Source: a virus. Taken from it: a DNA stretch of 64,000 nucleotides. A program made the translations under genes and the position numbers. The stretch lies in IMG/VR virus record IMGVR_UViG_3300012983_003032; one strand, written 5' to 3'. Within the stretch, counting starts at the first letter, position 1, and each line of letters opens with the position of its first letter. A model generated the notes under the pieces. It made no database searches. It saw only the letters and a list, made by a program, of their open reading frames with translations, and had not been told where the DNA came from. Positions 8,701 through 43,400 of this stretch are shown piece after piece.

Positions 8701-10064
8701 AACACGCTACCAGTGTCTTTTGACAGCTTCTTTTCAGAAGCCTTTTCCTGGCTTTCCTCAGCTTCCCTGAGTACTTTTATAGCTTCAGTTTTTATATTAA
8801 CTGCTGCATTTTTGTCTCGTTGATGAATTTGTCCACATTCAGGACAAATCCAATTCTCCAAATGGAATTTCTTAACTTCTGGATTCTTAAAACCACAACA
8901 AGAACAAGTTTGTGAAGAGGCAAAGAATTTGTTTACTTTGATGATATGGCATCCATATCTTTCGCCTTTCCATTTTAATTTAGAAACGAAAGTTGACCAA
9001 GAGATGTCTTGGTAATTCTTTGCGTTTCTTGAGCCTTTCATCATTCCTTGGATAGACAAATCTTCAATTCCGATAAGTTGGTTTTCCTTTGTCAGTCTCA
9101 AAGATTCTTTTTCTATCCAATCTAAACGACAATTTGCAATATGCTCTTCCAAAGAAGCAATTTTGATTCTAATTTTTTCTTTGTTTTTAGAATTTTTAAT
9201 TTTTCTTGCATATTGTCTTTGAAGATGAGAAAGTTGAGAAAGATGTTCTTGTTTTTGCTTTTTGAATCCATAATCAGCTTTAGCTGACTTTTCGTTCGAG
9301 TCTATGTACATATCATCACAGTCAAAGTCTAAACCTATGACTTGGTTTTCGTCTAAGTCTTTAACTTTGACTTTCTGCTTAAAGTCTAAATTGACTTCAA
9401 ACAAAATTGTGATGTAATATTTTCCGTTAGGTGTTCTTGAGCAAGTGTATGAACAAACTTTAGTTCTGTTTTTATACCATTTTGGTAAGTTTCTGTGAGA
9501 AAACTTAATTTTCCCAATTTTGGGAAGTTCTACAGTTTTAGAGTTCCAATCTAAGAAGTTTTGTTTCATCTGTGAGTCTTTGAAGGAATTTTTAGCTTTC
9601 TTGGAATGGAATTTTGGCTTTTCTGATTTTCCGGAAAAGAAATTGCTATAAGCAGTTCTTAAATTCATAACTGCATTTGCTTTTCCTTGACCATTAGCTT
9701 CCTTCAAAAAAGGAAATTGTTGAGTCAATTCTGAAACTTTTGGTTCGTGGTATTTCTTATATTCAGAATTCGTTATTTTTCTAATAGCTTCAAGTTCGGC
9801 CTTTAGATTTTTGATTTCTTGCTTATTTTCTTTTGAATTTTTTTGCAGCTCTTCGAGCTTTTGAACTTTTTCGTAATAGTCAAATTCTTTTCTTAATGGA
9901 ACTATGGCGTTTTCGTAGAATTGATTTTTTGAATTTAAGAGGTAGTTGTAGATGAATCTAACACAACCAAAAGTCTTGTCCAATTTAGACTTTTGTTCTT
10001 GAGATGGGTTTAGTCTGAGCTTAAGTGCTAAATTTACACTTCTGTAACTAATTGTATTAGACAT
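8655..10064 (-). CDS. tnpB: TnpB (IS605 OrfB) RuvC-like RNA-guided endonuclease homolog
   Basis: 469 aa. RuvC-I (IGLDFD), RuvC-II (IGIEDL), zinc finger CSCCGF...CPECG and RuvC-III (HQRDKNAAVNI) in canonical order. Confidence 0.9.
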   Translation of the reverse strand: MSNTISYRSVNLALKLRLNPSQEQKSKLDKTFGCVRFIYNYLLNSKNQFYENAIVPLRKEFDYYEKVQKLEELQKNSKENKQEIKNLKAELEAIRKITNSEYKKYHEPKVSELTQQFPFLKEANGQGKANAVMNLRTAYSNFFSGKSEKPKFHSKKAKNSFKDSQMKQNFLDWNSKTVELPKIGKIKFSHRNLPKWYKNRTKVCSYTCSRTPNGKYYITILFEVNLDFKQKVKVKDLDENQVIGLDFDCDDMYIDSNEKSAKADYGFKKQKQEHLSQLSHLQRQYARKIKNSKNKEKIRIKIASLEEHIANCRLDWIEKESLRLTKENQLIGIEDLSIQGMMKGSRNAKNYQDISWSTFVSKLKWKGERYGCHIIKVNKFFASSQTCSCCGFKNPEVKKFHLENWICPECGQIHQRDKNAAVNIKTEAIKVLREAEESQEKASEKKLSKDTGSVLSTSLLANLALADAS

Positions 10065-10331: not shown

Positions 10332-10775
10332 ATGAGAATATCAGATTTTAATATAGAAATGAATTGGCCTAACGGTGGTGAAATAGTGTGGAGTAAATTA
10401 ACACCCCATGTAGTACCTTATTTGTCAGATGACTTTAAGTATGAGTCATTTTATCATCAGCAAGGTATATCAAAACCCATACCACCAAAATCTTTTAATC
10501 TTACTTTTAATTTAGGTCAAGATGCAGATATTTATAATTACCTAAAAAGCTTTTTTACGTCAAAGTCAAGAAAATATTATGGATTATACAGTCTTAAAGA
10601 TAAGGGATGGATATATATACATAATAGAATGTTGTATGCTAAAAATAAAAATGTACTTCGGAAAAAGTACATAAAAATGATTAATAATTTAATTCCATTA
10701 TATACTTATGAAGAAGATAGTTTGATTAAATATCAGCATGATAAAAATGTTGTTATTAAGCCATTTTGGTTGTAG
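10332..10775 (+). CDS. hypothetical protein (147 aa)
   Basis: ORF with coding-like composition. Confidence 0.45.
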   Translation: MRISDFNIEMNWPNGGEIVWSKLTPHVVPYLSDDFKYESFYHQQGISKPIPPKSFNLTFNLGQDADIYNYLKSFFTSKSRKYYGLYSLKDKGWIYIHNRMLYAKNKNVLRKKYIKMINNLIPLYTYEEDSLIKYQHDKNVVIKPFWL

Positions 10776-11794: not shown

Positions 11795-13498
11795 ATGGCA
11801 AAGTCACAGAAAAAAATTAAAGAATGTAAACATAATGGCACTCGTTTTCCAGACCTTTTTAAGAGTAGAGGATTTACTCTTGCGGGTGTGTCACTTTATA
11901 ACAGTGATGTTGACTCTGCAGAAGAAATGCTTTGGCATTATGCAGCAAAGTTAGACACAGACTATGTTAAGAATGAAGTTTTTAACAAAAACTTTTATTT
12001 GTGTCTTAAAGAACAACTTCCTGAAACTTTAAGAAATATAAAGTTTCCTGATGGATTTATGTCTGTTCTTACAGAAATGAAGAAGTTGCAGGAAAAAGAA
12101 AAAGAAGAAAAAACACAGTATAAAAAAGACCATAAAGAAGAACTTAAAAAAGAGGCAGAAGACCTTAAAGAAGAATATGGATATGCAATTCTTAATGGTG
12201 AAAAACAGCCTCTTATGTCAAATTTGGTAGAAGGCCCTGGGATTTTTATTGCTCGTGGAGATGCACCCCTTCTTGGTATGTGGAAATACCGTACTATGCC
12301 AGAAGATGTAACAATTAACTATATTGGACCAAAAGAAGAAACTCCAAAAGCACCTGAAGGACATCATTGGAAGAAAGTAACTAATAATCAGGTATATTAT
12401 ATTGCTTCTTATGAAGTAGATATCGGACACATTACAACAAAGAATAAAGAAATTCGTTTTGGTAGTGGTTCTTCTGTAAAGGCTGATGCAGACCAAAAGA
12501 AGTTTGATAAGGCAGTAAATCTTTTACAGCATAAAAAAGAAATGGAACAGTATATTCGTGAGAACCTTACAAACCCTGACCCTAAAATTGCTGAGTGTGC
12601 TCTTATTTCTTGGTTATTGCAAGAAACAGGTATTCGTATAGGTAATTCTAAAAATGTCGAAATTGAAGCCGATACTGTTGGGGCGTCTACTTTGAAAAAA
12701 GAAAATATTTGGGCAGATGACGGAAAACTTTATCTTAATTTTATTGGTAAAGATTCGATTGTTTATAAAAATGAAATTGAAGTACCAAAGTATATTGAAA
12801 CTGCAATTAATCGAAAAGTTAAAAAGGCTAAAGATGGTGAACAGATTTTCAGTGTAGACTCAAATGATGTTAACAAATTCTTAGGAGCTTGTGTGGAAGG
12901 ATGTACTCCAAAGTTGTGGCGTACTGCAATTGCAACTGAACTTCTTGTAAATGCCTTTAAGGACCAACACGTTAAAAAGTCTATGACTGTAACTGAAAAA
13001 CTTCGTGCTTTTGACCTTGCAAATCTTGAAGTTGCGAAAAAATTAAATCATAAAAAAGCTGTATCAAAGAATTATGACTCACAGATTGAAAAGTTGGATT
13101 CTACTATTGAATCAGATGAGAATAAGTTTAATGAACTTAAAATTAAATTAACTGCTGAAATTAAAGAGCTTGATAAAAAAATTAAAAAAGCAAAAGAACT
13201 TGGTCTTGATAGAAATGTAAAATCTTTTAAGGAAACTAAAAAGAAAAAACAGGAACGTCTTACAAAGGCAGAAGAAAGTCTTAAAAACAAAAAGTTTAAG
13301 AGAGAATTCAAAGAACAGACAATGGATATTGCCATTGGTACGTCAAGAACAAATTATTGTAGTCCAAAAATTGCTTATAGTATCTGTAAGGACTTGGATA
13401 TTCCAATTGAAAAGATTTATTCTAAGTCTCTTTTGGAAAAGTTTAAGTGGGCAGAAAATGTAAGTAAGGATTATTGGAGAAAGTACCCAGATGTATAG
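11795..13498 (+). CDS. type IB DNA topoisomerase, eukaryotic (nuclear TOP1)-like with linker domain
   Basis: Recalled human TOP1 segments align along the protein: LKEEYGYAILNG...EGPGIFIARGDAPLLGMWKYRTMPEDVTINY with the TOP1 core; ADTVG and FIGKDSI; KLWRTAIATELL with KVFRTYNAS; and the catalytic-Tyr region AIGTSRTNYCSPKIAYSICKDLDIPIEKIYSKSLLEKFKWA with [41 protein letters not shown]. A ~100-aa coiled-coil linker precedes the active-site Tyr. Confidence 0.9.
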   Translation: MAKSQKKIKECKHNGTRFPDLFKSRGFTLAGVSLYNSDVDSAEEMLWHYAAKLDTDYVKNEVFNKNFYLCLKEQLPETLRNIKFPDGFMSVLTEMKKLQEKEKEEKTQYKKDHKEELKKEAEDLKEEYGYAILNGEKQPLMSNLVEGPGIFIARGDAPLLGMWKYRTMPEDVTINYIGPKEETPKAPEGHHWKKVTNNQVYYIASYEVDIGHITTKNKEIRFGSGSSVKADADQKKFDKAVNLLQHKKEMEQYIRENLTNPDPKIAECALISWLLQETGIRIGNSKNVEIEADTVGASTLKKENIWADDGKLYLNFIGKDSIVYKNEIEVPKYIETAINRKVKKAKDGEQIFSVDSNDVNKFLGACVEGCTPKLWRTAIATELLVNAFKDQHVKKSMTVTEKLRAFDLANLEVAKKLNHKKAVSKNYDSQIEKLDSTIESDENKFNELKIKLTAEIKELDKKIKKAKELGLDRNVKSFKETKKKKQERLTKAEESLKNKKFKREFKEQTMDIAIGTSRTNYCSPKIAYSICKDLDIPIEKIYSKSLLEKFKWAENVSKDYWRKYPDV

Positions 13499-13802
13499 AT
13501 TAAAATACACATATATGCAAATTAAAAAATACTTCCAGCAGAAAAAGTGTAAGCATAAGTACATTCTTATAAGGGACGTACATGGCGACGAGATAAACAC
13601 TTACTGCCAAAGTGTACGAAGTATTTGGAAATGTTTATAGCGTGTTGCGTAAAAGTCCCACATCTTTAGTGTGGGACATGTAGCAACACAAAGTCGTACT
13701 TTTGCTTTACGCCCAATGCTACTAAATATATAAAAGTTTATGCAAAATACAAAGAAAACCTAAAATGTATAAACTTTTGAGATAATATAATATTAAATAG
13801 AT

Positions 13803-14231
13803 ATGGCAAGAAAACTTGAAAGTTCAGCACATTCAAAGCATCTCATAATGTACCACTTGATATTTGTGGCAAAGTATAGAAGGAAGATATTTTCTTTCCA
13901 CGACTTTGGTGACGCTTTGAAACAAAAGTTTCTTGACATTTCTTCAAACTATGAGTTTTCAATAGATACAATAGACTTGGACTACTCTAAGCCAGACCAT
14001 ATACACATTCTTGTAAGAAGTATTCCTACATTGTCACCAGACCAAATAGTAAGAGTTCTGAAACAAGAAGCAAATATCTGGGCTTGGGATAACTATGGTC
14101 CTTGGCTCAAGAAGTTTTACCATAGAAGTCATCATCTCTTTACACGTGGATACTATTGTGGTTCAGTAGGAAATGTTTCCGCAGATACAGTAGCAAAATA
14201 CTTAGAAGACCAAGGGAGGAACGGATGCTAA
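13803..14231 (+). CDS. tnpA: IS200-like Y1 (HUH) transposase TnpA
   Basis: 142 aa. HUH motif HIHILV and C-terminal catalytic Tyr region (TVAKYLEDQ), size typical of IS200 TnpA. Confidence 0.85.
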   Translation: MARKLESSAHSKHLIMYHLIFVAKYRRKIFSFHDFGDALKQKFLDISSNYEFSIDTIDLDYSKPDHIHILVRSIPTLSPDQIVRVLKQEANIWAWDNYGPWLKKFYHRSHHLFTRGYYCGSVGNVSADTVAKYLEDQGRNGC

Positions 14232-15421
14232 AAGCGTATAAATATCGTATCTATCCTACTCAAGAACAAGAAACATTTCTATGTAAAGAACTCGGTTTGA
14301 AAAGACTCTATTGGAACATCTCACTTGCAAATAAGAATGCAGACCATTCTTACAAGCTTACTTCATACAAAGAAACATTTTCAAAATATAAGCCAGAAGC
14401 ACTTGAATGGTGTAAAGAAATAGACAGTACTGCTATGGCAGATGTTTGGAATGACTTGACACAAGCGTTCAGAAACTTCTTTGCATCTTGCAATGGTACA
14501 AGAAAAGGAAAGTTCGTAAAGCCACCAAAGTTCAAGTCTAAAAAGAATATGAAAGAGTCTATTGGCTACACTGCTATGGCAAAGCCAAAGTTTGTAAACG
14601 GAAAACTTTTCATAACAAGAAAACTTGGACTTCTAAAAGGTGCATACTATTGTCAGTTCTGTGAAGGAAAGTTAAAGAACGTAACTATAAGCAGAACTGC
14701 TACTGGTAAATGGTTTGTATCTATTTGTGTTGAGAAGAAAGACGAACCAAAGAACAATAACGGCAAAGCGATAGGAATAGACTGGAACTGTAGAGATGAC
14801 GTTTTTCTTACTTTAAGTGATGGCACGAAAGTCAAGTGTCCTCGCTTCCTAAGAGAAAAGGAAAAGCAGCTAGCTCACTATCAGAAACTCATGTCTAAAA
14901 AGTTTGTGAAAGGAAAACAAAAACAGTCTCAAAACTATTACAAAGCAAAATATAAAGTTGCTAAACTTCACGAAAAGGTTTCTTGGCAAAGACAAGACTG
15001 GTTGCATAGGTTGTCTTACGACTTGGCACAAAAGTATCAGTATGTCATTGTCGAAGACATCAACTTGCAGTCTATGGCACAAATGCATCACGGAAGAGCA
15101 GTTGGTGACCAAGGGTTTGGAATGCTAAGGAGTATGATAGCTTACAAAACTACTTTAGTGAAAGTTTCAGCAAAGAATACTTCTAAGACTTGTCATACTT
15201 GTGGGTATGTAAACCCAAAGGTTGTTTTAGGTGTTGAACAATGGAAATGCCCTGTCTGTTCTTCTGAACATGACAGAGATATAAATGCAGCCCTGAACAT
15301 CTTGAATAAAGGTGTTACTAGTCTGGGCGTAGTAGGCAGGGAACGAGCCGAAAGTACAAATGCCTGTGGAGTGCCACGAAGCACTGCGAAGCAGGAAGTC
15401 CACGTTGCCATCGAGCCTTAG
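14225..15421 (+). CDS. tnpB: TnpB (IS605 OrfB) RuvC-like nuclease
   Basis: Starts MLKAYKYRIYPT (classic TnpB N-terminus); the table ORF from 14156 is a TTG extension. Contains EDINLQ (RuvC-II), zinc finger CHTCGY...CPVCS and RuvC-III HDRDINAALNI. Confidence 0.9.
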   Translation: MLKAYKYRIYPTQEQETFLCKELGLKRLYWNISLANKNADHSYKLTSYKETFSKYKPEALEWCKEIDSTAMADVWNDLTQAFRNFFASCNGTRKGKFVKPPKFKSKKNMKESIGYTAMAKPKFVNGKLFITRKLGLLKGAYYCQFCEGKLKNVTISRTATGKWFVSICVEKKDEPKNNNGKAIGIDWNCRDDVFLTLSDGTKVKCPRFLREKEKQLAHYQKLMSKKFVKGKQKQSQNYYKAKYKVAKLHEKVSWQRQDWLHRLSYDLAQKYQYVIVEDINLQSMAQMHHGRAVGDQGFGMLRSMIAYKTTLVKVSAKNTSKTCHTCGYVNPKVVLGVEQWKCPVCSSEHDRDINAALNILNKGVTSLGVVGRERAESTNACGVPRSTAKQEVHVAIEP

Positions 15422-15480
15422 TTTCGGCTCGTAAGCAACTATGGAATGTCCCAGGTCTTTAGCCTGGGGCAGCGTTCAAT
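15300..15480 (+). ncRNA. putative omegaRNA scaffold (tnpB 3' end plus RE hairpin)
   Basis: Inferred from TnpB biology. The RE hairpin sits 30 nt after the tnpB stop. Confidence 0.3.
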
Positions 15481-15504
15481 ACATGAAAATTACGAGGTGT
15501 TGAA

Positions 15505-16301: not shown

Positions 16302-17075
16302 TTAAAGACTAGAAATAGGATTAAATAATTCTTCTGTATTAGAAACAGCATTAAACATATCTAAAATATCTTTGTTTGTTGGCATTTCTTTGGAAGTGAA
16401 TAGATTGTCTTCACTTTCAAAAACATTAGTATCTATCTTGTTAAAGGCTTCTTTAACCTCTTCTTCTTTCATTTCTTTATATACTCTATCCGCCTCAGTT
16501 TTAATGTCTTCCTTATTAATTTCTATATCGGATTTTGACTCTTCGGGAATATCTTCTGCATAATCAACAAGATAGAAAGACTTTAACATAAAATCATATG
16601 GGTCAATTTCTTTATATTGGTTTAAATGACAAAACATGTAAGGTTTTATAAAAAGCTTATCATTATCCCCCAGTTCATTTTTAGCATATGTACCCCATGA
16701 AGTAGATGTATCTATATTGACAGTAGCATATAAAACATCTCCTCTAAGTTCCATATTTGAAACCATACCTATTTTAGTATTACCTTGGTCTTTTTGTCCG
16801 TATATAGGTAGGTCATAAAGACCTTCATCTATTACTTTTTCCCACAATTCACGAGGGTAGGTAATGTGTGTTTTAAGTGGAACACCACACTGCATTAAAG
16901 GTATAGTGTACTCAAAGTATCTAGGGAATAAAGACCTCATTTTAATAGTTTCTTTATTATCTAAATTTTCTACAGTTTTAAAAAGAAATCTTGGATTTTC
17001 TTTCATTGAATTAAAATCTCCTTTAAGTGTTACTTTTACGGTGTCTGCATTTATAAGTTCTGAATATACTGGCAT
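16302..17075 (-). CDS. hypothetical protein (257 aa)
   Basis: Intact ORF, divergent from the structural operon. Confidence 0.55.
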   Translation of the reverse strand: MPVYSELINADTVKVTLKGDFNSMKENPRFLFKTVENLDNKETIKMRSLFPRYFEYTIPLMQCGVPLKTHITYPRELWEKVIDEGLYDLPIYGQKDQGNTKIGMVSNMELRGDVLYATVNIDTSTSWGTYAKNELGDNDKLFIKPYMFCHLNQYKEIDPYDFMLKSFYLVDYAEDIPEESKSDIEINKEDIKTEADRVYKEMKEEEVKEAFNKIDTNVFESEDNLFTSKEMPTNKDILDMFNAVSNTEELFNPISSL

Positions 17076-17196: not shown

Positions 17197-19695
17197 ATGG
17201 CATTAGTAAGAATGAGAGAAAGTCTTTGTATGCCTGCAAAGTACTATCAGGATATTACAGATACTGCACCAGCAAGTATTAAAGAATCTTTGAATAGTGC
17301 TAGACAGTCAGGAAGACTTACTGAGTCTACAAATGTAACAGTTAACTCTTTAGTTAAGATTCTTAGAGAGTCTAATATTGACGAAACTACTGTAGGAAAA
17401 GTAGTTACAAAATTAAAGTCTGACGGTGTTAACTTACAGGAACATAAGATTTATCGTGTTCCTATCAGTAGAATTAACCACCCAGAAAGAGGTGAGTTTA
17501 ATGGTAACGGTAGAGGATACAGCTCTGAGTTATGGCATAATGTAATGGACAATCAACAAGATGCTTGGAAAGGTCTTTGTGGGTTGGCAGACCACCCTAC
17601 AGACGACAACGACCCAGGTTCTTTCAAAAATAGTTCTATTGTTTGGTTAGGTATGGAAGTAGATGACCTCAATGATTTGGTATATGGTATCGGTTCTTTT
17701 GTAGGACCTTATGGTCATTTGGCACAGGAAATCATTGATTGTGGTGGTCGTGTAGGATTCAGTTCTTCTGGATTTGGTGAACTTATGCCTGACGGACATA
17801 CAGTAAACCCAGACACATATCAAATTGAACGTCTTGCAGACGTAGTATTAAATCCTTCACAGGACGTATACGGTGCAATTAACGACGAACAACGTAATAT
17901 CGAATACAGTGGTCCTAAAGAGGCAGTTGCTTCAACAGGAAATCAAAGAAATGGTATAAGCACATCTTATGGTGAATCTCGTGTATCATATAAACAATAC
18001 AATACATATAAGGAGTCAAACTCAATGGAAAATAACGGAATTAACTCAGCTTTTTCAAAAGTTAAGGAAAAGGAACTTAGAAAATATATTAAAAATTATT
18101 TAAATGAAAATACTGCAATCACTAATCCTATTAAGCAGTTGAAAGACCTTGAAGAAATTAGAGGTCTTATTCAGGAAGGTCAGTTAGAAGACCTTGAACC
18201 AGAAGTTCTTGCAAGAATGGAAGAAGCTAACAATAAGATTGAGGCAGCCGTAGAAAAGGGTATGAAAATCCAAGAAACAGAGGTAACTGTTTCTACTCCA
18301 GACGGAATCAATATCACTTTGAATGGTGACGGTGGTGCAGCACCTGTTTCAACTGCAATGGACGTTACTACACCTATAGACGGTGAAGTTTCTCTTGATG
18401 ATGAAGAAGAAACTTTCTTGGAATCAAACAAAATTGTAAAGGGTAAAAAACTTACAAAAGCACAGGAAAAATCAGTTCGTGCATATGTTAATAACTTTAT
18501 GAACGAATCTCACGAAGGTATGAACCCTCTTAAAGTTTATACTGACTTGACAGAAGTACTTGAATTGGTACGTGAATCTAAGTTTGACGACTTGGAAGAA
18601 GGTGTAGTTTCTAAACTTGAAGAAACTGCAAAACAGATGGAAAAAGACCTTAATGATGCTGTTACTATGAAAGCTAAACTTGGTTCTAAAGACCTTGCAG
18701 AAATTACTGAAAAAACTCAGGGTATTTTGGAAAAAGGTGAATTACTTGTTGAACAGTGTGCAGACTATAAAACTCTTTGTGAGGCACTTTCAAATAGAAA
18801 CCAAGAATTGGTTAAAGAATATCAAGCTTTGAAATTGAAGTTTGACCTTAATGAGTCTAAAGAAGAAGACTCAGTTCTTGCAAGAAATCAGAAAGTTGCA
18901 GAACTTGAAAATAAACTTGAAGAAGCAACAAAGAAATATGATGAACTTGACTTTGCTGCTGGTAGTAAAATGGCTGAACTTAACGAAGCTTTAGGAAAGG
19001 CAACAAAAGGTAATGTCAAACTTGAAAAAGAACTTGGTATTGCAAATTCTAAATATAAAGAAGCAACTGAAAAACTTAACAGTATGAAGACTTTCTATGA
19101 GTCTGAATTAGCAAAGTTGTCAGAAAAGAATAAAGAACTTGAAGAGTCATTAAAAACTAAAGAGGCAGAGGCTTCTAAGTTTGGTGAATCAATTGATAAT
19201 GTTCTTGCACAATTTAAGGCTTTACAAGAGTCAAATGCACAATTAACTGAAGAAGTTAAGAATTTAAAGGAAAATAAAACTTCTGACACTAATGAAGAAG
19301 TAGCTGAAGACACTTCTTCTGAAGAACCAAAAGACGAAAAGAAACCAGCTACTTTGGAAGAAGCAGTTTCTTTCAAAGACAGTGGAGTAGAAGGTTTCTG
19401 GAATGACTTACATACAAAATATGGTGAAGCCGTAGAACCTTATGAAATGAAGATTCGTGGACAGAAAACAATGCGTGAAGCTCAACTCGCTTGGATGGGA
19501 GTTATGAATAAAGTAGACGCAAATTTAAGAGTTGTTCAGGAAACTACATTTTATAAAAATGGTGTAATCTCACAAGGTCAAAGACTTCATAAATTGCACG
19601 AATGTGGTATGTTAACTTCAAAAGATGTTGAACAAGACGTTAATGAAATAAATGCAAGATTCCTTGCTAAAATGAAGGCTGCAGGTTTAAATTAA
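17197..19695 (+). CDS. virion morphogenesis protein: N-terminal globular domain plus ~450-aa C-terminal coiled coil (scaffold/prohead-protease-like organisation)
   Basis: 832 aa. The C-terminal half is heptad-rich and highly charged. Function inferred only from architecture and position. Confidence 0.55.
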   Translation: MALVRMRESLCMPAKYYQDITDTAPASIKESLNSARQSGRLTESTNVTVNSLVKILRESNIDETTVGKVVTKLKSDGVNLQEHKIYRVPISRINHPERGEFNGNGRGYSSELWHNVMDNQQDAWKGLCGLADHPTDDNDPGSFKNSSIVWLGMEVDDLNDLVYGIGSFVGPYGHLAQEIIDCGGRVGFSSSGFGELMPDGHTVNPDTYQIERLADVVLNPSQDVYGAINDEQRNIEYSGPKEAVASTGNQRNGISTSYGESRVSYKQYNTYKESNSMENNGINSAFSKVKEKELRKYIKNYLNENTAITNPIKQLKDLEEIRGLIQEGQLEDLEPEVLARMEEANNKIEAAVEKGMKIQETEVTVSTPDGINITLNGDGGAAPVSTAMDVTTPIDGEVSLDDEEETFLESNKIVKGKKLTKAQEKSVRAYVNNFMNESHEGMNPLKVYTDLTEVLELVRESKFDDLEEGVVSKLEETAKQMEKDLNDAVTMKAKLGSKDLAEITEKTQGILEKGELLVEQCADYKTLCEALSNRNQELVKEYQALKLKFDLNESKEEDSVLARNQKVAELENKLEEATKKYDELDFAAGSKMAELNEALGKATKGNVKLEKELGIANSKYKEATEKLNSMKTFYESELAKLSEKNKELEESLKTKEAEASKFGESIDNVLAQFKALQESNAQLTEEVKNLKENKTSDTNEEVAEDTSSEEPKDEKKPATLEEAVSFKDSGVEGFWNDLHTKYGEAVEPYEMKIRGQKTMREAQLAWMGVMNKVDANLRVVQETTFYKNGVISQGQRLHKLHECGMLTSKDVEQDVNEINARFLAKMKAAGLN

Positions 19696-24735: not shown

Positions 24736-24832
24736 TCTAATATTTAGTCAAGCAAAATGTTTTTTAAAAAAGTGTTAATATGTTAGTAAGTCCACAGTAT
24801 TGTGGGTATATTTATTTTTAAGAGGTGATATT

Positions 24833-25051
24833 TTGTCACAGGTTGTAAAAGTAATCGTAGAGGACACAGGTCATCCTGAAAAAGACCTTGAACGAGCTCT
24901 ACGTAAATTCCGAAAGGAAGAAGAAGCCGAAGACATTCTTAATGAAATTAAGAAACGTCAGTATTTTACAAAACCTTCTGCTATAAAACATGAACAGAAG
25001 AAACATTCAGCACACAAGGCTGAATTAGAAAAAAAAGAAAAAGGAAGGTGA
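24833..25051 (+). CDS. rpsU: ribosomal protein bS21 homolog (phage-encoded)
   Basis: MSQVVKVIVEDTGHPEKDLERALRKFRKEEEAEDILNEIKKRQYFTKPSAIKHEQKK parallels E. coli bS21 ([47 protein letters not shown]). TTG start at 24833 with AAGAGGTGA SD; the table ORF from 24800 is an upstream TTG extension. Confidence 0.75.
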   Translation: MSQVVKVIVEDTGHPEKDLERALRKFRKEEEAEDILNEIKKRQYFTKPSAIKHEQKKHSAHKAELEKKEKGR

Positions 25052-25071
25052 TAATTTTTTAATTTATTTTA

Positions 25072-25114
25072 GAAAGCCATACATAATATATTATTGTGTA
25101 TGGCTTTCTAATTT
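25072..25114 (+). terminator. intrinsic terminator after bS21 (12-bp perfect stem gaaagccataca / tgtatggctttc)
   Basis: Stem followed by taatttaa. Confidence 0.55.
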
Positions 25115-25238: not shown

Positions 25239-26162
25239 TTGGAAACAGTTAAAGTGAAAATGTCAGATGGAAAAGAAATTGTATTAAACAAATTTCTACC
25301 ATCTAAAAAAATTAAAGCTGTAATAGTATTACATCACGGTCAAACAGAGCACTCTTTAAGATATACTCATTTTGCAGATTTCTTAAACAAAAATGGTATA
25401 GCATTGTATGCTCACGACGGAAGATGTCATGGTCAATCCGTAGATAAAATCGAAGATTTGGGTTACTTAGACTACAATAAAGGGTTTGATACAGTAACTT
25501 CGGATTTGCATACTATTATTGAAACTTGCCGTAAAGATTTACCTGACGTTAAAGTTTTTATTGCAGGACACTCATTTGGTTCTTTTATTGTTCAAAATTA
25601 TATTGAAAAATATAAAGCAGATAATGAAAACTTCGGTGGTGCAATATTATTAGGTTCTGCAGGACCAAAACCATTCTTAATGTTTGCAGGTATTTTACTA
25701 GCAAAAGTAGTTACATTTTTCAAAGGTAAAAAAGGGATAAGTAAATTACTCCATAAAGTAATGCACGGTTCTTATAATGACCATTTCCCTGGTGAGGGTG
25801 AAAATGCTTGGTTGACTCGCGATAAAGAAATTCAAAAGGCATTTGAAGATGACCCTAGATGTGGATTTGAACCTACAAACGCATTTAGACATACATTCTT
25901 AAAAGGTTTATTTAACATCCATAGACAAAAGAACCTTGCTAAAATAGATGTGGATTTACCAATTTTAATTATGTCTGGTACAGAAGACCCAGTAGGTGAC
26001 TATGGTAAATCTGTAGATAAATTGGTATCAGCATACAAAGATTATAGAATCAAATCACTTAAAGTAAAAATGTATAAAGACGCAAGACACGAACTCTTAA
26101 ACGAGTTGAATAAAGATGAAGTTATGAAAGACCTTTTAGATTGGGTTAAAGAAAAACTTTAA
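25239..26162 (+). CDS. alpha/beta-hydrolase, lysophospholipase / monoacylglycerol-lipase family
   Basis: VLHHGQTEHSLRYTHFADFL...HDGRCHGQS (HG oxyanion region), nucleophile elbow GHSFGS, and later Asp/His. TTG start at 25239 after GGGGG SD (alternative ATG 25260); the table ORF from 25119 is an extension. Confidence 0.75.
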   Translation: METVKVKMSDGKEIVLNKFLPSKKIKAVIVLHHGQTEHSLRYTHFADFLNKNGIALYAHDGRCHGQSVDKIEDLGYLDYNKGFDTVTSDLHTIIETCRKDLPDVKVFIAGHSFGSFIVQNYIEKYKADNENFGGAILLGSAGPKPFLMFAGILLAKVVTFFKGKKGISKLLHKVMHGSYNDHFPGEGENAWLTRDKEIQKAFEDDPRCGFEPTNAFRHTFLKGLFNIHRQKNLAKIDVDLPILIMSGTEDPVGDYGKSVDKLVSAYKDYRIKSLKVKMYKDARHELLNELNKDEVMKDLLDWVKEKL

Positions 26163-26934: not shown

Positions 26935-26980
26935 AAACTAATTGCAACTTTTAAACCTGCTATGTTTTCATAATTCTCCC

Positions 26981-27023: not shown

Positions 27024-30000
27024 ATGAAATCATTTCGTCTTATATTTGTAGACCAAGATGAAAGCTATACAGTACAAACTGTTACTAGCCCTATTAAAGG
27101 TTTCATTTCAGTACGTGCCCCTAAAGGTACAACTGAAGCAATGTATTTTGAATACGGAAATGAAAAGGCAATAGATGCTATGATAGGTCTTGGTACTGCT
27201 GATTGGCCTGATATTAAAGAGGCAGTGGCATTTAACAGGTCTTATGGACTTTATATTTCTGCACCACCAGGAAATTGTGAAGACTACCCTACATATTATG
27301 GTGGATGTTATTTAACAACAAAAGGTTTATTTAACTTCTGGAGAGTAAATGACCCAGACGAACCTTCTTTTGATATTCAAGTTTACCCAGGATTTGAAAA
27401 TGTAGACTATGATGAAACTTTTGCTAAGTCAGAAATTGATGTTGTAGATATCAATACTGAGGCAGGAAAATCTTCTATTATTAAGATTACAAATATCGAC
27501 GCAAGAGTTTTCCAGAGAATGTCTTACTTTACTCTTAAATGTTGGGCAGACACTTCTACAAGAATTGGTGAAAATGAAGAAATTAAATATCACTTGGTAA
27601 ACGGAAAGATTTTCTCAGTTTATGACGACGAAGATTCTGAAATTCAAGCAGGTTTCTATGAACTTACAAGTGACGGTACTTATAATATCATTTTAGGTGC
27701 AACCGCAATTACTTCTCAAGACGATATCGTTCCAATTGATAAAAACATTACTACAGTTGTTGTTGTAACACCTTCTGCTACTAACGGTGGAGAAACTACT
27801 ACAGTAAGTTCTTTCTCTAGAGCAAGATTTGTAAGTACTTATAAATTAAAAGAAGGAAGATTCTTCTATAAAGATAAGGCTTGCACTGTACAGGCTGGTA
27901 TTTCTTCAACTGACGCAGATGGAAACACTATTACTGAGGATATGCCATCTACAGTATATGTAAAGGCAGCAGATATTGACACATTAAATGTAACAAAATA
28001 TACACCATCAAAGAATACTTTGAGTACACCTCATGTACCATACTTTGATATGACAAAGTTCTTGGGTGAGTATAACGCATTTGATATTTCAACAATTTAT
28101 TCTGATGATATTGAAGGACTTACAGGTCTTGAACTTATTAGATATCTTATCTTGAATGGATGTAGTAGTCTTGTTACTCTTAAAGGTAAGTTCAATAATG
28201 CAAATGTTGAAAAATACATTACTCCTACAGTTGGTCTTGTAGATAGAATCTACTGGAATATCAATGTAAAGAATGACTGTTTTATGTACGTTTCTCAGAA
28301 GTCACCTAACGAAACTCCTACTTCTATCACTATTAGTAACATTGGTTATGATAAGTATAAGTATGATATGCACGTTAGCTACATTTTGAAATCTGACTTC
28401 GACAAATTCAGAGACGGCTCTGTTGCACCTGACGGATTTATCAAAGCTGTTATTGCAAGTAATGCTGACGGTATTATTGACGTAGTAACTTCTACAGCTG
28501 AAAAAGACTTCTTAACACCAAGTACTAACCTCCATGCACTTTATCAGTATAGTACTGTAACAGGTGAATGGGTAGACGTTACACCAAATTATAAGACTAA
28601 GACTTTCTATATTGACGGACCTTTGGATTGTAAAGGTGTTAATGATAATAGTACAGTTAATGCTTTCTGTAAGTATACAATCTGGAAGATTGTAAATGTA
28701 AAAAAACCTGACTCATTTGAACATGAAACATATCAGATGAAGAATGGTGGAAACTATCCTTTGAAGTCTGATATTAACTATAACACTGTAACTATTTCTT
28801 GTAAAGAAAAAGTTTACCCAGGTACTTATACAACTGGTGGTACACATTATGGTTCTTTGAACCCAGAAGGTGTAGATGCAGCAGGAACAAATATTTATTT
28901 CCCTAACGTTCTTCCTAATGAAGAAACTGCTACATTCTTTAATGTTTATCCAGTTCATACTTTAGAGGAATTAGGTTGTGTAAATGATAATGGATTCTAT
29001 ACTGGTGTTAAGATTGTTGACCCAATCGGACCAGAACAAGATACATATACATTTACTATTAAAGGTCAGAGACCTATGACAGCCGCAGTTCAGGCTAACA
29101 TTGATGCAGGTACTGTAGGATGTGCTTGGACAACTAACGAAGTTTATGGTACTAGAGTAGACGCAATCTTCGAGGCTGCAATTAATGACTCTATTATTGA
29201 ATGTCAGGACGATATCTATGACGATGCACTTGTTATTATGGAATGTTCTGGACAGGAAGTATTTAAGTCTGCTTTAATGTCTTTAAGACAATCTCACCGT
29301 GATACAAGTACTATTATCTCTCCAAAGATTATTACTAAGGCAGAGTTTAATAATCCAAATACTATTGTAGTAAATGGTCGTGTAACAGGTACTGCACAGT
29401 ATATCGGTGAATTCAAGATGTATGACTCTAACACAGGTAAGTATTACTGGTGTCAACCAATTGGTGACGTTGGTGCTATGCTTGCTCGTATTATGGAAAA
29501 GAAATATGGTGGAATTGCACCTGCGGGTACAAATGATAGTCAGGGTCTTGGTGGTGTTCTTCCAAGAGCAGTTCTTGCTGCAAAGTGGAACTTCAAAGAT
29601 TCTCAGTTACAGATTCTTGACGGAAAAGGTTTGAACCCTATCACATTTGACTCAAAATATGGTCTTATGATGCAAGGTCAGAAAACAACTCAAGACCCAG
29701 ATAACGTAACTGACTGGTCTTACCTTGGACACTCAATGTCATTTGACTTGTGTAAACGTGAAATCCGTGATAACGTAATGGTTAAACAAGTTCACAAACG
29801 TATTAGTGATAACTACTTCACTATTCGTGAAAAGCAGGTTAAGGCTATCCTTGACAAACGTACAACTGGTAATGACCCTATTTGGGCACTTGCTACTGTT
29901 GACGTTGCTGGTGTTAATACTCCTTCAACTATGGCACAGAGAAAGTTCTGTATCAAGGTTAAAGTTAAAGTGTACGTGTACAGCGATTTTGTGGAACTCA

Positions 30001-30026
30001 CATTCGTTACGCTCGGACAGGAGTAA
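27024..30026 (+). CDS. large virion structural protein (1000 aa), beta-rich
   Basis: Strong SD AAGGAGA. T/S/N/V-rich composition typical of capsid/sheath/fibre proteins. Unusual C-terminus KVKVKVYVYSDFVELTFVTLGQE. Confidence 0.6.
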   Translation: MKSFRLIFVDQDESYTVQTVTSPIKGFISVRAPKGTTEAMYFEYGNEKAIDAMIGLGTADWPDIKEAVAFNRSYGLYISAPPGNCEDYPTYYGGCYLTTKGLFNFWRVNDPDEPSFDIQVYPGFENVDYDETFAKSEIDVVDINTEAGKSSIIKITNIDARVFQRMSYFTLKCWADTSTRIGENEEIKYHLVNGKIFSVYDDEDSEIQAGFYELTSDGTYNIILGATAITSQDDIVPIDKNITTVVVVTPSATNGGETTTVSSFSRARFVSTYKLKEGRFFYKDKACTVQAGISSTDADGNTITEDMPSTVYVKAADIDTLNVTKYTPSKNTLSTPHVPYFDMTKFLGEYNAFDISTIYSDDIEGLTGLELIRYLILNGCSSLVTLKGKFNNANVEKYITPTVGLVDRIYWNINVKNDCFMYVSQKSPNETPTSITISNIGYDKYKYDMHVSYILKSDFDKFRDGSVAPDGFIKAVIASNADGIIDVVTSTAEKDFLTPSTNLHALYQYSTVTGEWVDVTPNYKTKTFYIDGPLDCKGVNDNSTVNAFCKYTIWKIVNVKKPDSFEHETYQMKNGGNYPLKSDINYNTVTISCKEKVYPGTYTTGGTHYGSLNPEGVDAAGTNIYFPNVLPNEETATFFNVYPVHTLEELGCVNDNGFYTGVKIVDPIGPEQDTYTFTIKGQRPMTAAVQANIDAGTVGCAWTTNEVYGTRVDAIFEAAINDSIIECQDDIYDDALVIMECSGQEVFKSALMSLRQSHRDTSTIISPKIITKAEFNNPNTIVVNGRVTGTAQYIGEFKMYDSNTGKYYWCQPIGDVGAMLARIMEKKYGGIAPAGTNDSQGLGGVLPRAVLAAKWNFKDSQLQILDGKGLNPITFDSKYGLMMQGQKTTQDPDNVTDWSYLGHSMSFDLCKREIRDNVMVKQVHKRISDNYFTIREKQVKAILDKRTTGNDPIWALATVDVAGVNTPSTMAQRKFCIKVKVKVYVYSDFVELTFVTLGQE

Positions 30027-31279: not shown

Positions 31280-32773
31280 ATGTTATTTATTGCAGGTATT
31301 GTAGCAGTAGTACTTTTGATATTACTGTTTATTACATCTTACATTAAGGCTTCACCTGATGAGGCTTTAATTGTTTCAGGTCTTCGTAAAAAACCAAAGA
31401 TTATTATTGGTAAGTCGGGATTTAGAATTCCTTTCTTGGAAAAGAAAGACCGACTCTCTCTTAAACTTATCCCTATTGATGTAAAAACCAGCTCGTCTGT
31501 ACCGACTGCAGACTATATCAACATTAATGTTGACGCAGTAGTAAACGTAAAAGTTTCAGATGACTTTGAAAAAATTAATCTTGCAGCACAGAACTTCTTG
31601 AATAAAGATACTGAAAAAATTGGTGCAATTGCCCGCGAGGTACTTGAGGGTAATATGCGTGAGATTGTAGGACAGATGACATTGGAACAGATGGTTTCTG
31701 ACCGACAAACTTTTGCCGAAAAAGTAAAGGATAATGCAGCTCCAGACCTTGCAAAGATGGGATTGGATATTGTTTCTTTTAATGTTCAGAACTTTATTGA
31801 TAATAATAATGTTATTGAAGACCTTGGTGTTGATAACATTACTAAAATTCGTAAAAAGGCTGCAATTGCAAAGGCACAGTCTGAAAAGGAAATTGCTGTT
31901 GAACAAGCTAAGGCTCGTAAAGAGGCAAATGACGCAAAGATTGAGTCTGATACACAGATTGCTATTAAAGAAAATGCACTTGCATTGAAGAAGTCTGAAT
32001 TGGACGCAAAAGCGGGTACTGAAAAGGCAAAGGCAGATGCAGCATATAAGATTCAACTTGAGGAACAGAGGAAAACTCTTGAAATTACAACTGCAAACGC
32101 AAATATTGCAAAGCAGGAAAAAGAGGTAGAAATCCGTCGTAAAGAAGTAGAAGTCCAGGAACAAACTCTTGACGCACAAATCAAGAAACAAGCAGAGGCA
32201 GATAAGTATGCAGCATTACAAAAAGCCGACGCAGATTTGTATACTCGTCAGAAAGAGGCTGAGGCAAGAGCATTTGAACTTCAAAAACAAGCTGAGGCAG
32301 AGGCTTATCAGAGACAGAAGAAAGCAGAGGCAGATAAAGCTGCAATGGAAAATGAAGCAACTGGTAAGAAAGCTCTTGCAGAGGCTGTTCAGGCACAAGG
32401 TGAGGCAGAAGCCGAGGCAATTAAAGCTAAACTTGTTGCAGAAGCTGATGGTATGCGTGAAAAGGCAGAGGCACTTAAAGAATATGGTGATGCTGCTAAA
32501 CAACAAATGCAACTTGACGCACTTAAAGTTTACTTTGAACAGTTGCCAAAGATTGCAGAGGCAGCAGGTAAAGCATACCAGAGTGTTGACAAGATTTATA
32601 TGTACGGTGGAGACTCTTCAAAGTTGCAAAGTGATATTATGAAGAATGTTACACAGGTTTCAGAGGGTCTTGGTCAGACAATGGGTATTGACCTTAAAAC
32701 ACTTCTTGGTGCTTTCGTAGGTAGTAAACTTGCTGGCAAAGGCACAGACTTAGAATTGCCTAAGACAGAATAA
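31280..32773 (+). CDS. SPFH (band-7/flotillin-like) membrane protein with long coiled-coil EA-rich tail
   Basis: N-terminal TM MLFIAGIVAVVLLILLFI, then a YqiK/flotillin-like SPFH core (ALIVSGLRKKPKIIIGKSGFRIPFLEKKDRLSLKLIPIDV...INVDAVVNVKV), then a ~250-aa KAEA-repeat coiled coil. ATG at 31280 after GGAGG; the table ORF from 31235 is an extension. Confidence 0.75.
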   Translation: MLFIAGIVAVVLLILLFITSYIKASPDEALIVSGLRKKPKIIIGKSGFRIPFLEKKDRLSLKLIPIDVKTSSSVPTADYININVDAVVNVKVSDDFEKINLAAQNFLNKDTEKIGAIAREVLEGNMREIVGQMTLEQMVSDRQTFAEKVKDNAAPDLAKMGLDIVSFNVQNFIDNNNVIEDLGVDNITKIRKKAAIAKAQSEKEIAVEQAKARKEANDAKIESDTQIAIKENALALKKSELDAKAGTEKAKADAAYKIQLEEQRKTLEITTANANIAKQEKEVEIRRKEVEVQEQTLDAQIKKQAEADKYAALQKADADLYTRQKEAEARAFELQKQAEAEAYQRQKKAEADKAAMENEATGKKALAEAVQAQGEAEAEAIKAKLVAEADGMREKAEALKEYGDAAKQQMQLDALKVYFEQLPKIAEAAGKAYQSVDKIYMYGGDSSKLQSDIMKNVTQVSEGLGQTMGIDLKTLLGAFVGSKLAGKGTDLELPKTE

Positions 32774-32942: not shown

Positions 32943-33725
32943 ATGATAAAAATTTTACCTTGGACTTATAAAGACCCTTTAAACATGATAGGGGCATGTG
33001 CAGGATACTGTTGGGGAAGTAATACTACTAATCCCGAAGAAAATATAAAACGTGCAAAGTTTTGTATTAAAAGTAATCATGGTCGAGTTGAGGAATTTCC
33101 CGATATTTATTGTACAATAGACGGATATTCTGCGCGTTGTATTCGTGAATTATCAAGACATTGTGTGGGAACAACTTTTTTACAAAGTAGTACCAGATAT
33201 GTTGACGCAAAGGATATGAATCCTAGAGAGGACTTTTTTTATCCGTATGGTCTTGATACGACCCAAACAGACGTTCTTTTTAAAGGTTATAAGAAAATAA
33301 TGGAAACTTATAATGAATTAGAAAGTTTAGATGTAAATAAAGAAGATGCTGCAAATATTTTACCATTAGGAATGAATACTGACATAGTATGGAAATTAAA
33401 TGTTAGGGCATTAATCCATTTTATGGAGTTAAGACTTTGCAGTCGTGCATATAAAGAGATTCGTCAATTATGTATTGAACTTAAAAATAAGATGTCTGTA
33501 TATTCCGAAGAATGGAAATGGATTGCAGATAACTATTTTGTTCCGTCCTGCAAAACTCGTGGGTATTGTATTGAGGCTCAGTGTTGTGGTGTAGCACCTA
33601 AAGGTCTTAAAGGCCTTCAAGAAAAAAATATTACTGATTTTGTAAAATACTTATCTGAAAATACTACTGTGGATATAACTACAATAAAGGATATTATTCC
33701 AAGCTTTTTGGAGGAACCTAAATGA
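32943..33725 (+). CDS. thyX: flavin-dependent thymidylate synthase ThyX
   Basis: ThyX signature RHRx7S present as LSRHCVGTTFLQSSTRY; size 260 aa. Confidence 0.85.
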   Translation: MIKILPWTYKDPLNMIGACAGYCWGSNTTNPEENIKRAKFCIKSNHGRVEEFPDIYCTIDGYSARCIRELSRHCVGTTFLQSSTRYVDAKDMNPREDFFYPYGLDTTQTDVLFKGYKKIMETYNELESLDVNKEDAANILPLGMNTDIVWKLNVRALIHFMELRLCSRAYKEIRQLCIELKNKMSVYSEEWKWIADNYFVPSCKTRGYCIEAQCCGVAPKGLKGLQEKNITDFVKYLSENTTVDITTIKDIIPSFLEEPK

Positions 33726-40429: not shown

Positions 40430-43400
40430 ATGGCAGTTAATCAAGAAACCCTAGAAACTTTAGGGGGTATAAAAGAATCAATAGACTCAATCAAAGCAGG
40501 AAATACTTCTGCAAAAGACGGTGTTACCGATAAAGAAGAGTCACTTGAAAAGTTGGTTGAAAGATTAGAAAAAAGTCTAACCGACGAAATGAAAGAAATT
40601 ATTGACGCAATAAATGGTAAAAATAAGAAAGGTAAAGAAACAAAAGACGCCGCTGCCAGTATATTCTCTGATGATGATATTGAACAACTTAGTGGTGTAG
40701 TAAATGGTGGAACAGAAGAGAAAATTACCCCACCAAAATCAGGTCAAGTAACACCTAATGATTTGTCAAAAATTGACCAAACTGCTGCATTAGGAAGTTT
40801 ACTTATCTATTATAAATTAGATGAAATTAAACAAGCTCTAGACCCGTTAATTTTAAAATTAACAAAAGGTGGAGTTTCAAAGGATAAATCCCAAGCTGGT
40901 TCAGAGGGTATAAATATAGCCGATAGTGGAAATATGGCAACAATGATTTCAAGTTTAAAAGAATTTGCAAAAGCCGCAATGTTATTGGCACTTATACCAA
41001 AAGGACCTGCAACTGCTGGAGTGGAATTATTTGAAAATTTTGTAAAATCTATGAATCAGATGTCAGAAAAAACCGATGCTAAAAAACAAGAAGATTTTGC
41101 AAAATCTCTTTCAAGTATGTCAGAGTCCATTAAAAAACTTGCAGGTGCTTGTTTATTATTATCAGTATCTATTGTATTTATAGCAGTTTCTGTCCCTGCA
41201 ATGTTGTTATTAAGAGAAGTTGTTAGACTAGCAGGTGAGGCAGGAGAGCTGGTTGGTGAGAATGCCCAAAACCTTGCAATATTGGCTGTAGGTGCAGTAT
41301 TACTTGCTGTTTCATTTATATTATTTGGTGCAGCTTTTGTAGTTATGGCAAATGTACTTCCTAAAATACCTGCTGCATTATTGAGTATTTTAGCAGTAAT
41401 AGGTGTTTTGGCTGTAACATTAGTATTAGGTGCTCTTATGGCATATGCTGTACCTATTTTGGCAATATTCCCATTAGTAGCAATTTTAGTTGCAATTGGA
41501 TATATGGCAATGGCAGCCGCAATTTTAGTTTTAAGTAATATAAAGGTTGACCAAGAACAATTGAAAAAAGGTATTGACGGTATAAAAATGGTATTAGAGG
41601 AAACTGTTCAGTTAGGGATAGCTTGTTTACCATTAGTTATACTTATGGTGCCATTTATCCTTACAGCAGGACTTATGTTTGTAGGTTTTACTGTTTTATA
41701 CTTTGCATTATTCTCTTTAGCACTTATAAGTTTCTTTATAGGAACAGGTGAATGGATGGATGTTGCTGTAGCAAAGATAATTAAATTTTTTGCGGCTTTT
41801 GGTACACAAGAATTTTTGAAAACCGCAGGTCTCGCATTGGTAGGTTCTCTTGCAATTGCAGTTGCCTCAGTAGCATTGGTTATTGCATTTGTTTCCATGA
41901 CCATAAATATACTTTTATTAAAGGCTATTGACGCTCTTATTACAGACGATAATATGATTCCAAGAATTATGGGTAAAGAGGGTGCAATTAGCAAGATAAT
42001 GGATAGTACAGTGGCTTTAAGTTTAAAAGCTCTTGTTGCAACTATCGCGGCAGTCCCATTGGTTGCATTTGGTGTTGTATTCCTTGTAGCTATGGCTTCT
42101 ATTGCTCTTGCATTTGGAGCAATTGTATTAGTTGATAAAGCCGTAAATGCTATTAAAGACCCTAAGTCTTTAGGTGATAAGTCTAGAGACCTTTGTGTAA
42201 ATTTATTATTGTCTATAATGGGTCTTGACGCAGATGGCTCTATAAGTGCAGGCGACCTTATTAAAGGTGGATTAAATATGGTAGGAATGACGGCAGCAGC
42301 CGTATTGATAGTTCCTTTTGCAGTTGCAGCTGCCCTTGCAATGGTAAGTTTATTGGCTACAGTTGAGTCAATCAAAGCATTAAGTAAGGTAATTGACTCT
42401 TTTGGGCCTGAAGACGTACAGAATGTAATGAGTGTTATGGGTATAATACTTGGTACGTTAGCTGAGTCGGCAGAAGCCTTTAAGGGTACTTCTGCAAAGA
42501 CCATAACTGCATTAGGTTCTTTAGTAAAAGACGTTGCAGAGTCTATATCTACTTTAACTGACGTAGTTCTTAAATTAAAGAACGGTATCCCTGACGAACA
42601 GATAGATGCAGCTGTTTTTGCAATAAAGAGAATTTGTGAGAAATTGTTCGGTAATCCTGACGTAGATGAAAAGGGTGCATATAATTTAACAGTACTATTC
42701 AAACAGTTGGCAAGTAGTAAATTAAAGAATTTAAAGGCAGAGGCTGTTTCTGCATTAATCCCAATAATAGATTCTATTGATACTCTTGCAGACTTGGTAG
42801 TTAAAGTAAGTGATGAAGACCAATTTTCTCAGCAAAGGATTGATTTAGGGACTGCAAATATAGAAAGATTCTTGGGGTTAATAGTAAATGTTGCCTCCGC
42901 AATGAAGTCTCTTGTAAAAGTAGACGGTGGTTGGCTCGGTGCAAAATTATTAGGAAATAAATCTCCTCTTGAGGCAGTAGAAGAAGTAGTTAATTCAGGA
43001 TTTTTTGACAAATTTACTACTATGATTAATCAAATGTCTTCTACTGCAAATATTGTAGGTACTGCAAGAGTTGAAGAATATCAGGGATTTATAAATTTCT
43101 GGAAACAAGACTTCTCAAAAATGAGTGAAAGTTCTTCTGAGTTTAAGGCTGCATTTAAAAATGTTAATGACGCCTTTAAGGGTATTAATGATAAAACATT
43201 AGACGCATATGAAAGATTTATTAAGATAAGTACAATGGATTCTTCGGGTGCAACTCAGACTCTAAGTTCCTTAACAACACTTGCAAATCTTTCTCCAAAG
43301 TTTGTAGCCATTGCCGACGCTTTTAGTAAAATGGCTTCGTCTATGGACACTATGGCAAAGAAGACAAGTAAACTTAATGAAATGTTCGATAAGATGAAGA

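Follow-up and report, generated by a model that had tools for sequence, protein, structure and literature searches.

Among the ribosomal proteins that viruses encode, bS21 is the commonest. It is a late-binding protein of the 30S subunit, and its core anchors it on the 30S platform beside the anti-Shine-Dalgarno (anti-SD) tail of the 16S rRNA. The protein adjoins and supports the anti-SD (PMC10491246), and phage-encoded versions have been proposed to replace host bS21 and to favour phage mRNAs (PMC6375957, PMC7162821, PMC9723584). The bS21 of HTVC008M enters E. coli ribosomes and is, in the terms in which PMC6375957 is cited in PMC9976891, the only phage bS21 so reported. About 900 bS21 phages have been published, and in these the gene typically lies a few genes from that of the prohead protease, the MCP or the sheath (PMC9723584).

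In the freshwater huge phages predicted on Bacteroidetes (Chen et al. 2022, PMC9723584), as in the phage described here, a single small bS21 gene lies near prohead protease and virion genes, is conserved amid a varying neighbourhood, and encodes an aromatic-ring residue at the Tyr54 position (His61 in the present protein). Unlike in those phages, our bS21 gene shares its strand with the structural genes and has its own promoter-like box and terminator-like hairpin, and it resides in an SD-rich genome of about 430 kb, as against up to 331 kb. The bS21 proteins of HTVC008M and Mosig belong to the same family and were the top tblastn hits among GenBank phages, but they are only 30-45% identical to ours over 58-82% of the protein, their host clade and environment differ, and their genomes measure 141-147 kb. 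Two host-encoded systems, both experimentally supported, also offer comparison. Among the Francisella bS21 paralogues, which give rise to specialised ribosomes, a bS21 swap alters the choice of mRNAs for initiation (PMC9578407). In Flavobacterium, where bS21 controls the anti-SD and its gene likewise has an extended SD (PMC9976891, PMC7797042), loss of bS21 changes SD recognition, and ribosomes lacking the protein regain that recognition (PMC9976891). The extended SD of the phage gene is not distinctive, because the genome as a whole is SD-rich.

The present locus lies in a window of 64,000 nt, the whole stretch of DNA that was analysed, from the 425,174-bp contig ena:ERZ27246346:k141_1467315. 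Our analyses support the assignment of the ORF at 24833-25051 as a bS21 (rpsU-family) homologue carried by a phage. It fits the known pattern and is a divergent addition from a lineage of phages of about 430 kb that has few representatives. We consider it likely that this is a functional bS21 of a gut phage of about 425-440 kb, entering host ribosomes and favouring SD-led phage mRNAs. The phage protein would enter host 30S subunits, instead of or alongside host bS21, and would there alter mRNA selection by the anti-SD and the mRNA exit region, and the altered selection would favour the phage's own SD-led messages. Both ribosome incorporation and the direction of the bias are what we infer by analogy with the systems above. 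By itself this bS21 leaves existing knowledge unchanged; it adds a well-delimited, strongly conserved cassette from SD-reliant phages of about 430 kb, unlike the best-studied bS21 phages. The features are collected in Table 1.

Table 1. Features of the bS21 locus, and SD use in the window and in the sequences compared with it
Feature	Coordinates	Strand	Evidence or value
Head-maturation protease domain (aa 51-260) plus coiled-coil scaffold-like region, 832 aa, 5 kb upstream of S21	17197..19695	+	phrog_207
Promoter-like box TGTTAATAT, extended -10 type	24773..24781	+	invariant in 5/5 S21 lineages; 51 nt upstream of start codon
5' UTR stem-loop	24789..24809	+	hairpin scan 24790-24807; five-lineage covariation
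Shine-Dalgarno AAGAGGTGAT	24820..24829	+	3 nt ahead of TTG; identical in five lineages
bS21 (rpsU-like) CDS, 72 aa; TTG start at 24833, TGA stop at 25049-25051	24833..25051	+	Pfam, NCBIfam and PHROG matches above threshold; dN/dS; conserved TTG
Terminator-like hairpin, 20-bp stem	25069..25111	+	-30 kcal/mol, z -8.6
Alpha/beta hydrolase, directly downstream of S21	25239..26162	+	Pfam Hydrolase_4, E 5e-44
Contractile tail sheath, 1000 aa, 2 kb downstream of S21	27024..30026	+	AF2 model and Foldseek
SD use, this window			51-55% of ORFs; control 4-10%
SD use, L007 and L011			47-50% of ORFs; control 4-13%
SD use, 20 IMG/VR relatives			47-53% of ORFs; control 4-7%
SD use, Rikenellaceae loci			4-9% of ORFs; control 6-12%
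SD use, Bacteroides phage crAss001			23-27% of ORFs; control 14-21%

The initial annotation had read this ORF as a bS21 homolog, and the HMM search bears this out, with profile scores above the curated cut-offs of both Pfam (PF01165 Ribosomal_S21, 38.5 bits, E 9.6e-10, gathering threshold 27) and NCBIfam (the S21p equivalog TIGR00030, 38.5 bits, cut-off 28.95). The ORF also matches phrog_21469 'ribosomal protein S21' (E 9.5e-8), and a phmmer search of all PDB chains returned almost exclusively bS21 from bacterial, plastid and mitochondrial ribosomes, with 8fmw_U at the top (E 8.8e-6). The alignment to the Ribosomal_S21 family profile is confined to residues 17-61 of the 72-aa protein. The core LERALRKFRK ... 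KRQYFTKPS aligns with E. coli-type, B. subtilis-type and metagenomic bS21; across the alignment K47 is invariant, and A22, F26, E38, R42, P48 and S49 are nearly so. An alternative 83-aa reading from TTG 24800, the one called in JGI record P0001, was rejected. We prefer the start at 24833 because TTG 24800 lacks an SD and the longer frame would run through the conserved 5' hairpin; TTG 24833 is the called start in all other lineages.

The protein, or variants 79-99% identical to it, recurs on many contigs from different samples. Nei-Gojobori comparison of the S21 genes of the window and of two related lineages (L007 and L011) gave a dS of 0.9-2.4 and a dN of 0.11-0.12, with dN/dS of 0.04-0.13. 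The gene is therefore under strong purifying selection over its full length.

What sets the protein apart is mainly its charge and its N-terminal part. Its net charge of +4 and pI of 9.4 lie at the low edge of, yet inside, the bS21 range; the median net charge is +13 for 70 other best hits (<=95 aa) and +7 for Rikenellaceae bS21. The E. coli and B. subtilis proteins, in what we take to be their sequences, carry +14. A first helix that reads KEEEAEDILNE, against KYERTGVLKE in Rikenellaceae, is acidic, and ahead of it lies an insertion of about six residues, TGHPEK, of a type common to the metagenomic S21s P0006-P0008, P0010, P0012, P0017, P0018 and P0028. The tail, too, is weakly basic, and the weak basicity of the protein could weaken rRNA binding. 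His61 aligns with Tyr54 of Rikenellaceae bS21, a residue that in Flavobacterium stacks against nucleotide A1534 of the anti-SD (PMC7797042, as relayed in PMC9723584). Since His at the Tyr54 position is also reported in a few phage bS21s, some of them from Bacteroidetes phages (PMC9723584), His61 is not diagnostic.

The unusually low net charge and the acidic first helix would also suit an S21-fold RNA-binding protein that is no longer ribosomal and acts instead as an mRNA or small-RNA chaperone, as a partner in another RNP or as a packaged virion protein. bS21 does have extra-ribosomal partners, the OLE RNP being one example (PMC12054373), and packaging of bS21 into virions has been proposed as a possibility (PMC9723584). 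We nevertheless regard such a departure from the ribosome as quite unlikely, given that ALRKFRK and RQYFTKPS, the rRNA-anchoring core, form the best-conserved part of the phage protein, that the equivalog-level cut-off is passed and that purifying selection extends over the full length.

The initial annotation had also placed the gene among structural and auxiliary genes, and this setting was confirmed, with the head-maturation protease upstream, the sheath downstream and accessory genes between. Synteny of the S21 gene holds in three lineages at least; five lineages have the upstream cassette in common. On the upstream side the order is kept, with minus-strand ORFs of 66 aa and 237-240 aa and then the block holding the 832-aa ORF, and the sheath lies downstream. 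The interval between S21 and the sheath varies, being occupied by the alpha/beta hydrolase and a 224-aa ORF here and by ORFs of 151 and 147 aa in others; the hydrolase is lineage-specific, as L007 and L011 have other small ORFs at that position. The setting is neither ribosomal nor of the rpsU-dnaG-rpoD type.

The replicon is a huge phage, about 425-440 kb in size, with a contractile tail. We base this on the fold of the sheath, the head-maturation protease, the replicon-sized contigs and the relatives in IMG/VR. The sheath ORF belongs to a deep family of homologues without a Pfam domain. Its AlphaFold2 model, built from a 40-sequence alignment (pLDDT 85.5), matched T4 gp18 in a Foldseek search of the PDB (E 4e-16), as well as the KP1, P1, phiKZ and AFP/PVC sheaths. 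In IMG/VR, 20 viral contigs encode relatives of the sheath; they measure 9-386 kb, and nine fall within 199-386 kb. The family recurs on contigs of reproducible size, for example 273-281 kb for one cluster. The match of the protease to phrog_207 'head maturation protease' (E 2.1e-10) appeared only when the N-terminal domain, aa 51-260, was searched alone; phmmer of this domain against the PDB returned noise only. A weak tape-measure match lies at 47376-48857 (phrog_305, E 1.2e-5). Relatives of the source contig assemble at 429,464, 437,441 and 442,135 bp.

One could suppose instead that the window is not phage DNA at all but comes from a giant plasmid or a small cellular genome equipped with a contractile injection system, in which case the gene would be an ordinary rpsU. 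Capsid (MCP), portal and terminase (TerL) genes were not identified within the 64 kb. Neither the 24 kb around the bS21 gene (megablast) nor six concatenated putative baseplate/tail proteins nor, separately, the sheath (both by tblastn) matched GenBank phages, and one sheath homologue sits on a 940-kb scaffold. Even so, we hold this reading to be highly improbable. The window itself includes the head-maturation protease domain, several assemblies made independently agree on a size of 425-442 kb, viral contigs in IMG/VR carry the sheath family, and the gene context is unlike that of a cellular rpsU. Moreover, about two-thirds of the ORFs tested have no Pfam match, most of the large ORFs matched neither Pfam nor PHROG even at permissive E-values, and scans of the window for tRNAs, Rfam families (rRNA included) and other ribosomal genes found none. 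The lack of a match for the structural block means that the lineage is absent from the GenBank phage collection.

Two further large ORFs on the plus strand lie in the putative baseplate/tail block, one of 1066 aa with many hydrophobic segments (40430-43630) and one of 1781 aa (48924-54269). Neither has a Pfam, PHROG or GenBank-phage match. The 940-kb scaffold mentioned above (L125; ena:ERZ28612970 scaffold_1, 940,564 bp) encodes a sheath homologue with 51% identity over 59% of the query, together with a eukaryote-type Topo IB, among mostly unannotated ORFs. Should L125 be one phage genome, as opposed to a concatemer or host chromosome, its size would exceed the 735-841 kb cited for the largest phages.

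The bS21 gene looks like a monocistronic cassette consisting of a box, a 5' hairpin, an SD, a TTG start and a terminator, to judge from its conserved signals and from the hairpin and terminators downstream. The window contains 12 copies of the box TGTTAATAT, which we infer to be a promoter of the extended -10 type; 2.5 copies would be expected, and 0 of 100 shuffles reached 12. Eight of the 12 copies are intergenic and directly upstream of genes, namely those for S21, ThyX, flotillin, a 322-aa ORF, the His-phosphatase and three unannotated ORFs (5181-, 10332+ and 17075-). In L007 and L011 the box likewise precedes S21, flotillin and ThyX.

The stem-loop that follows is predicted to open a transcript that begins about 7 nt past the box, where it would have a stabilising role. 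In the five-lineage alignment 90% of its cells are paired and three of the eight pairs show compensatory C-G to U-A changes, a covariation whose score was reached by 2 of 500 shuffles and which, with five sequences only, is supportive and not conclusive. The 5' region as a whole folded no better than shuffled sequence. We considered and rejected a role of the hairpin as an attenuator or terminator, as a U-rich tail stands behind it only in the window and in L124. The 16-nt AAGAGGTGATAYTTTG is identical across five lineages whose flanks have diverged, and the AGGTGAT of the SD is complementary to the 3' tail of the 16S rRNA.

That the gene has its own SD, as proposed at the outset, is well borne out by the invariant AAGAGGTGAT just before the TTG. 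The companion claim of its own terminator stands in part. The 20-bp hairpin is strong, and at the orthologous position L007 and L011 have canonical terminators with a GC stem plus a T-run, but the hairpin in the window has no clean U-tract behind it, and the terminator scan did not pick it up. Its compactness (72 aa, with a defined promoter, UTR and terminator) makes the cassette a convenient construct for probing the effect of a phage bS21 on SD-dependent mRNA selection.

The nearest relatives of the protein are few. Among 1.84 billion representative proteins searched exhaustively with HMMER, only 84 reached E <= 1e-3; the best hit beyond the protein's own cluster was 49% identical, and nothing outside the clade exceeded 50%. 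Of the nearest outsiders, P0006 belongs to a phage-like replication module that also encodes dUTPase, dCMP deaminase, PolA and DnaB, P0008 is surrounded by unannotated ORFs, and the context of P0013 is cellular. In IMG/VR, S21 itself was found at only three distant loci (36% identity), and no S21 gene lies less than 10 kb from the sheath gene in the IMG/VR relatives of the sheath family. Of the 84 HMMER hits, 30 have 70% or more identity to Rikenellaceae bS21. When one genome per species was scanned with the pattern [KR][KR]RQYF[TVK]KP, 343 confirmed bS21 genes were obtained, for which a narrower alignment was used, a broad S21 alignment being too diverse for a genome scan. The best 80 of these 343 were all from Alistipes, Tidjanibacter or other Rikenellaceae gut genomes, with 38-48% identity over residues 18-69; the scan is biased to genomes with the RRQYFTKP motif, and the exhaustive HMMER search serves as the unbiased check.

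The Rikenellaceae type is thus the most similar recognisable cellular bS21, though a distant one. The two proteins are of similar length and have in common the core LExALKKFKRK plus RRQYFTKPS. They differ in the TGHPEK insertion, the acidic helix, the His at Tyr54 and the C-terminal tail of the phage protein, as well as in their low identity.

The way in which the phage marks its genes points elsewhere. With crude ORFs of at least 150 aa and internal positions as control, a GGAG, GAGG or AGGA motif at -18 to -4 was found in 55% of the window ORFs against 10% of controls, and SD 5-mers in 51% against 4%. The values in Table 1 show comparable use in L007, L011 and the IMG/VR relatives, unlike in the Rikenellaceae loci and crAss001. 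The contigs of P0006 and P0008 are likewise SD-rich and low in GC. The Bacteroides-type TAnnTTTG is not enriched upstream of window genes (6 observed against 5.5 expected), and the GC content of the window is about 32.5%, the Rikenellaceae loci having a median of 54%. SD use, promoter motif and GC together point to an SD-using host, in conflict with the S21 similarity. Hence the initial view of the gene as a useful host marker did not hold up: the nearest bS21s are those of Rikenellaceae, yet the SD use resembles neither Rikenellaceae nor crAss001. More generally, bS21 similarity alone can mislead host assignment.

Other genes did not name the host. A search of 185,579 species genomes with the TnpB of the recently inserted IS200/IS605 element found no close relative, and plasmid TnpBs matched it at only about 35% identity. 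The tblastn searches of GroEL, ThyX, NadE, Topo IB, flotillin and the hydrolase against phages gave no host discrimination; GroEL, for instance, hit phages of many phyla at about 37% identity. The best phage hits of flotillin were human-faecal phage contigs (48% identity), and the record behind one clade member bears the label gut metagenome. On these two grounds the environment is probably the animal gut.

The conflict between similarity and SD use could be reconciled if the host were a member of the Bacteroidia, for example of the Rikenellaceae, in whose ribosomes the anti-SD is hidden under bS21, bS18 and bS6. The weakly basic phage bS21 would then displace host bS21 and free the anti-SD, so that SD-led phage mRNAs would be translated selectively while the SD-less host mRNAs would lose out. 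Such a takeover would account for a phage that is SD-rich while the Rikenellaceae loci are not, and for the Rikenellaceae bS21s being nearest both in the genome scan (best 80 of 343) and among the HMMER hits (30 of 84). It is in keeping with the recovery of SD recognition by Flavobacterium ribosomes without bS21 (PMC9976891), with the existence of low-GC huge gut phages predicted on Bacteroidales (PMC12880540) and with the clade member in a gut-metagenome record. If true, it would amount to a one-protein switch to SD-dependent initiation that only phage mRNAs could exploit.

We judge this scenario unlikely on several counts. Identity to Rikenellaceae bS21 is low, and the best PDB match is another chain, 8fmw_U. 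Phages usually mirror their hosts, as indicated by the cultured Bacteroides phage, which shows no SD enrichment, and the closest S21s outside the clade, P0006 and P0008, are on SD-rich, low-GC, phage-like contigs. The promoter box resembles an extended -10, the Bacteroides-type TAnnTTTG motif is not enriched, the GC contents lie far apart (32% against 54%), and the residue that stacks on the anti-SD is not clearly lost, His61 standing at the Tyr54 position as His does in some Bacteroidetes-phage bS21s (PMC9723584). A functional bS21 of a gut phage, which would act in host ribosomes, is the preferred reading.

The upstream motifs suggest that there are two promoter classes and that S21 belongs to that of ThyX and flotillin, the sheath to the other. 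Ahead of the sheath gene stands a ACTAATTTA-type motif, which is kept in the window, in L007, in L011 and in the distant L125, and which also stands upstream of GroEL and of a 723-aa ORF. In the form AACTAATT / ACTAA[AT]TA, this second recurrent motif occurs on the plus strand at 26936, 34662, 55131, 56209 and 59231, ahead of the sheath, the 723-aa ORF, GroEL and others, and is possibly a distinct promoter class, perhaps a late one. The bS21 of lake phages is reported to be expressed late (PMC9723584); S21 expression here is possibly earlier than that, a timing judged from motif sharing alone.

In addition, a GTTAATAT promoter-like box starts 14-16 nt before an SD-less ATG at four ORFs, 1122-3230 (-), 5571-5912 (+), 10332-10775 (+) and 16302-17075 (-), and the same spacing is seen at ThyX of L007 (17295) and L011 (16983). 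This spacing predicts leaderless or near-leaderless mRNAs beside the SD-led majority. In E. coli, bS21 influences the relative translation of leaderless and SD-led mRNAs (PMC10491246), and near-leaderless messages may therefore bear on the role of the phage bS21.

The window also encodes a full-length eukaryote-type DNA topoisomerase IB at 11795-13498 (+), with matches to Topoisom_I_N (E 3e-44), Topoisom_I (E 7e-38) and Topo_C_assoc (E 2e-19). This three-domain architecture is unusual outside eukaryotes. The gene is kept near the structural block in relatives (L003 1-389, L007 1-225 and the distant L125 7189-9132). Just after it lies a 1.86-kb insertion, an IS200/IS605 element at 13635-15490 with a TnpA Y1 transposase (13803-14231) and TnpB (14225-15421). 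The insertion is recent, since it is missing from the otherwise near-identical strain L003. A second TnpB is at 8655-10064 (-).

Cellular-type auxiliary genes include those for GroEL (56241-57914), an SPFH/flotillin protein (31280-32773), ThyX (32943-33725) and a GT2 (7609-8580), and on the minus strand a His-phosphatase (61768-62355) and an NAD synthase (62626-63435). The last of these is in line with the theme of the 'NAD-jumbo phage', which has been described in jumbo phages of the gut (PMC11662467).
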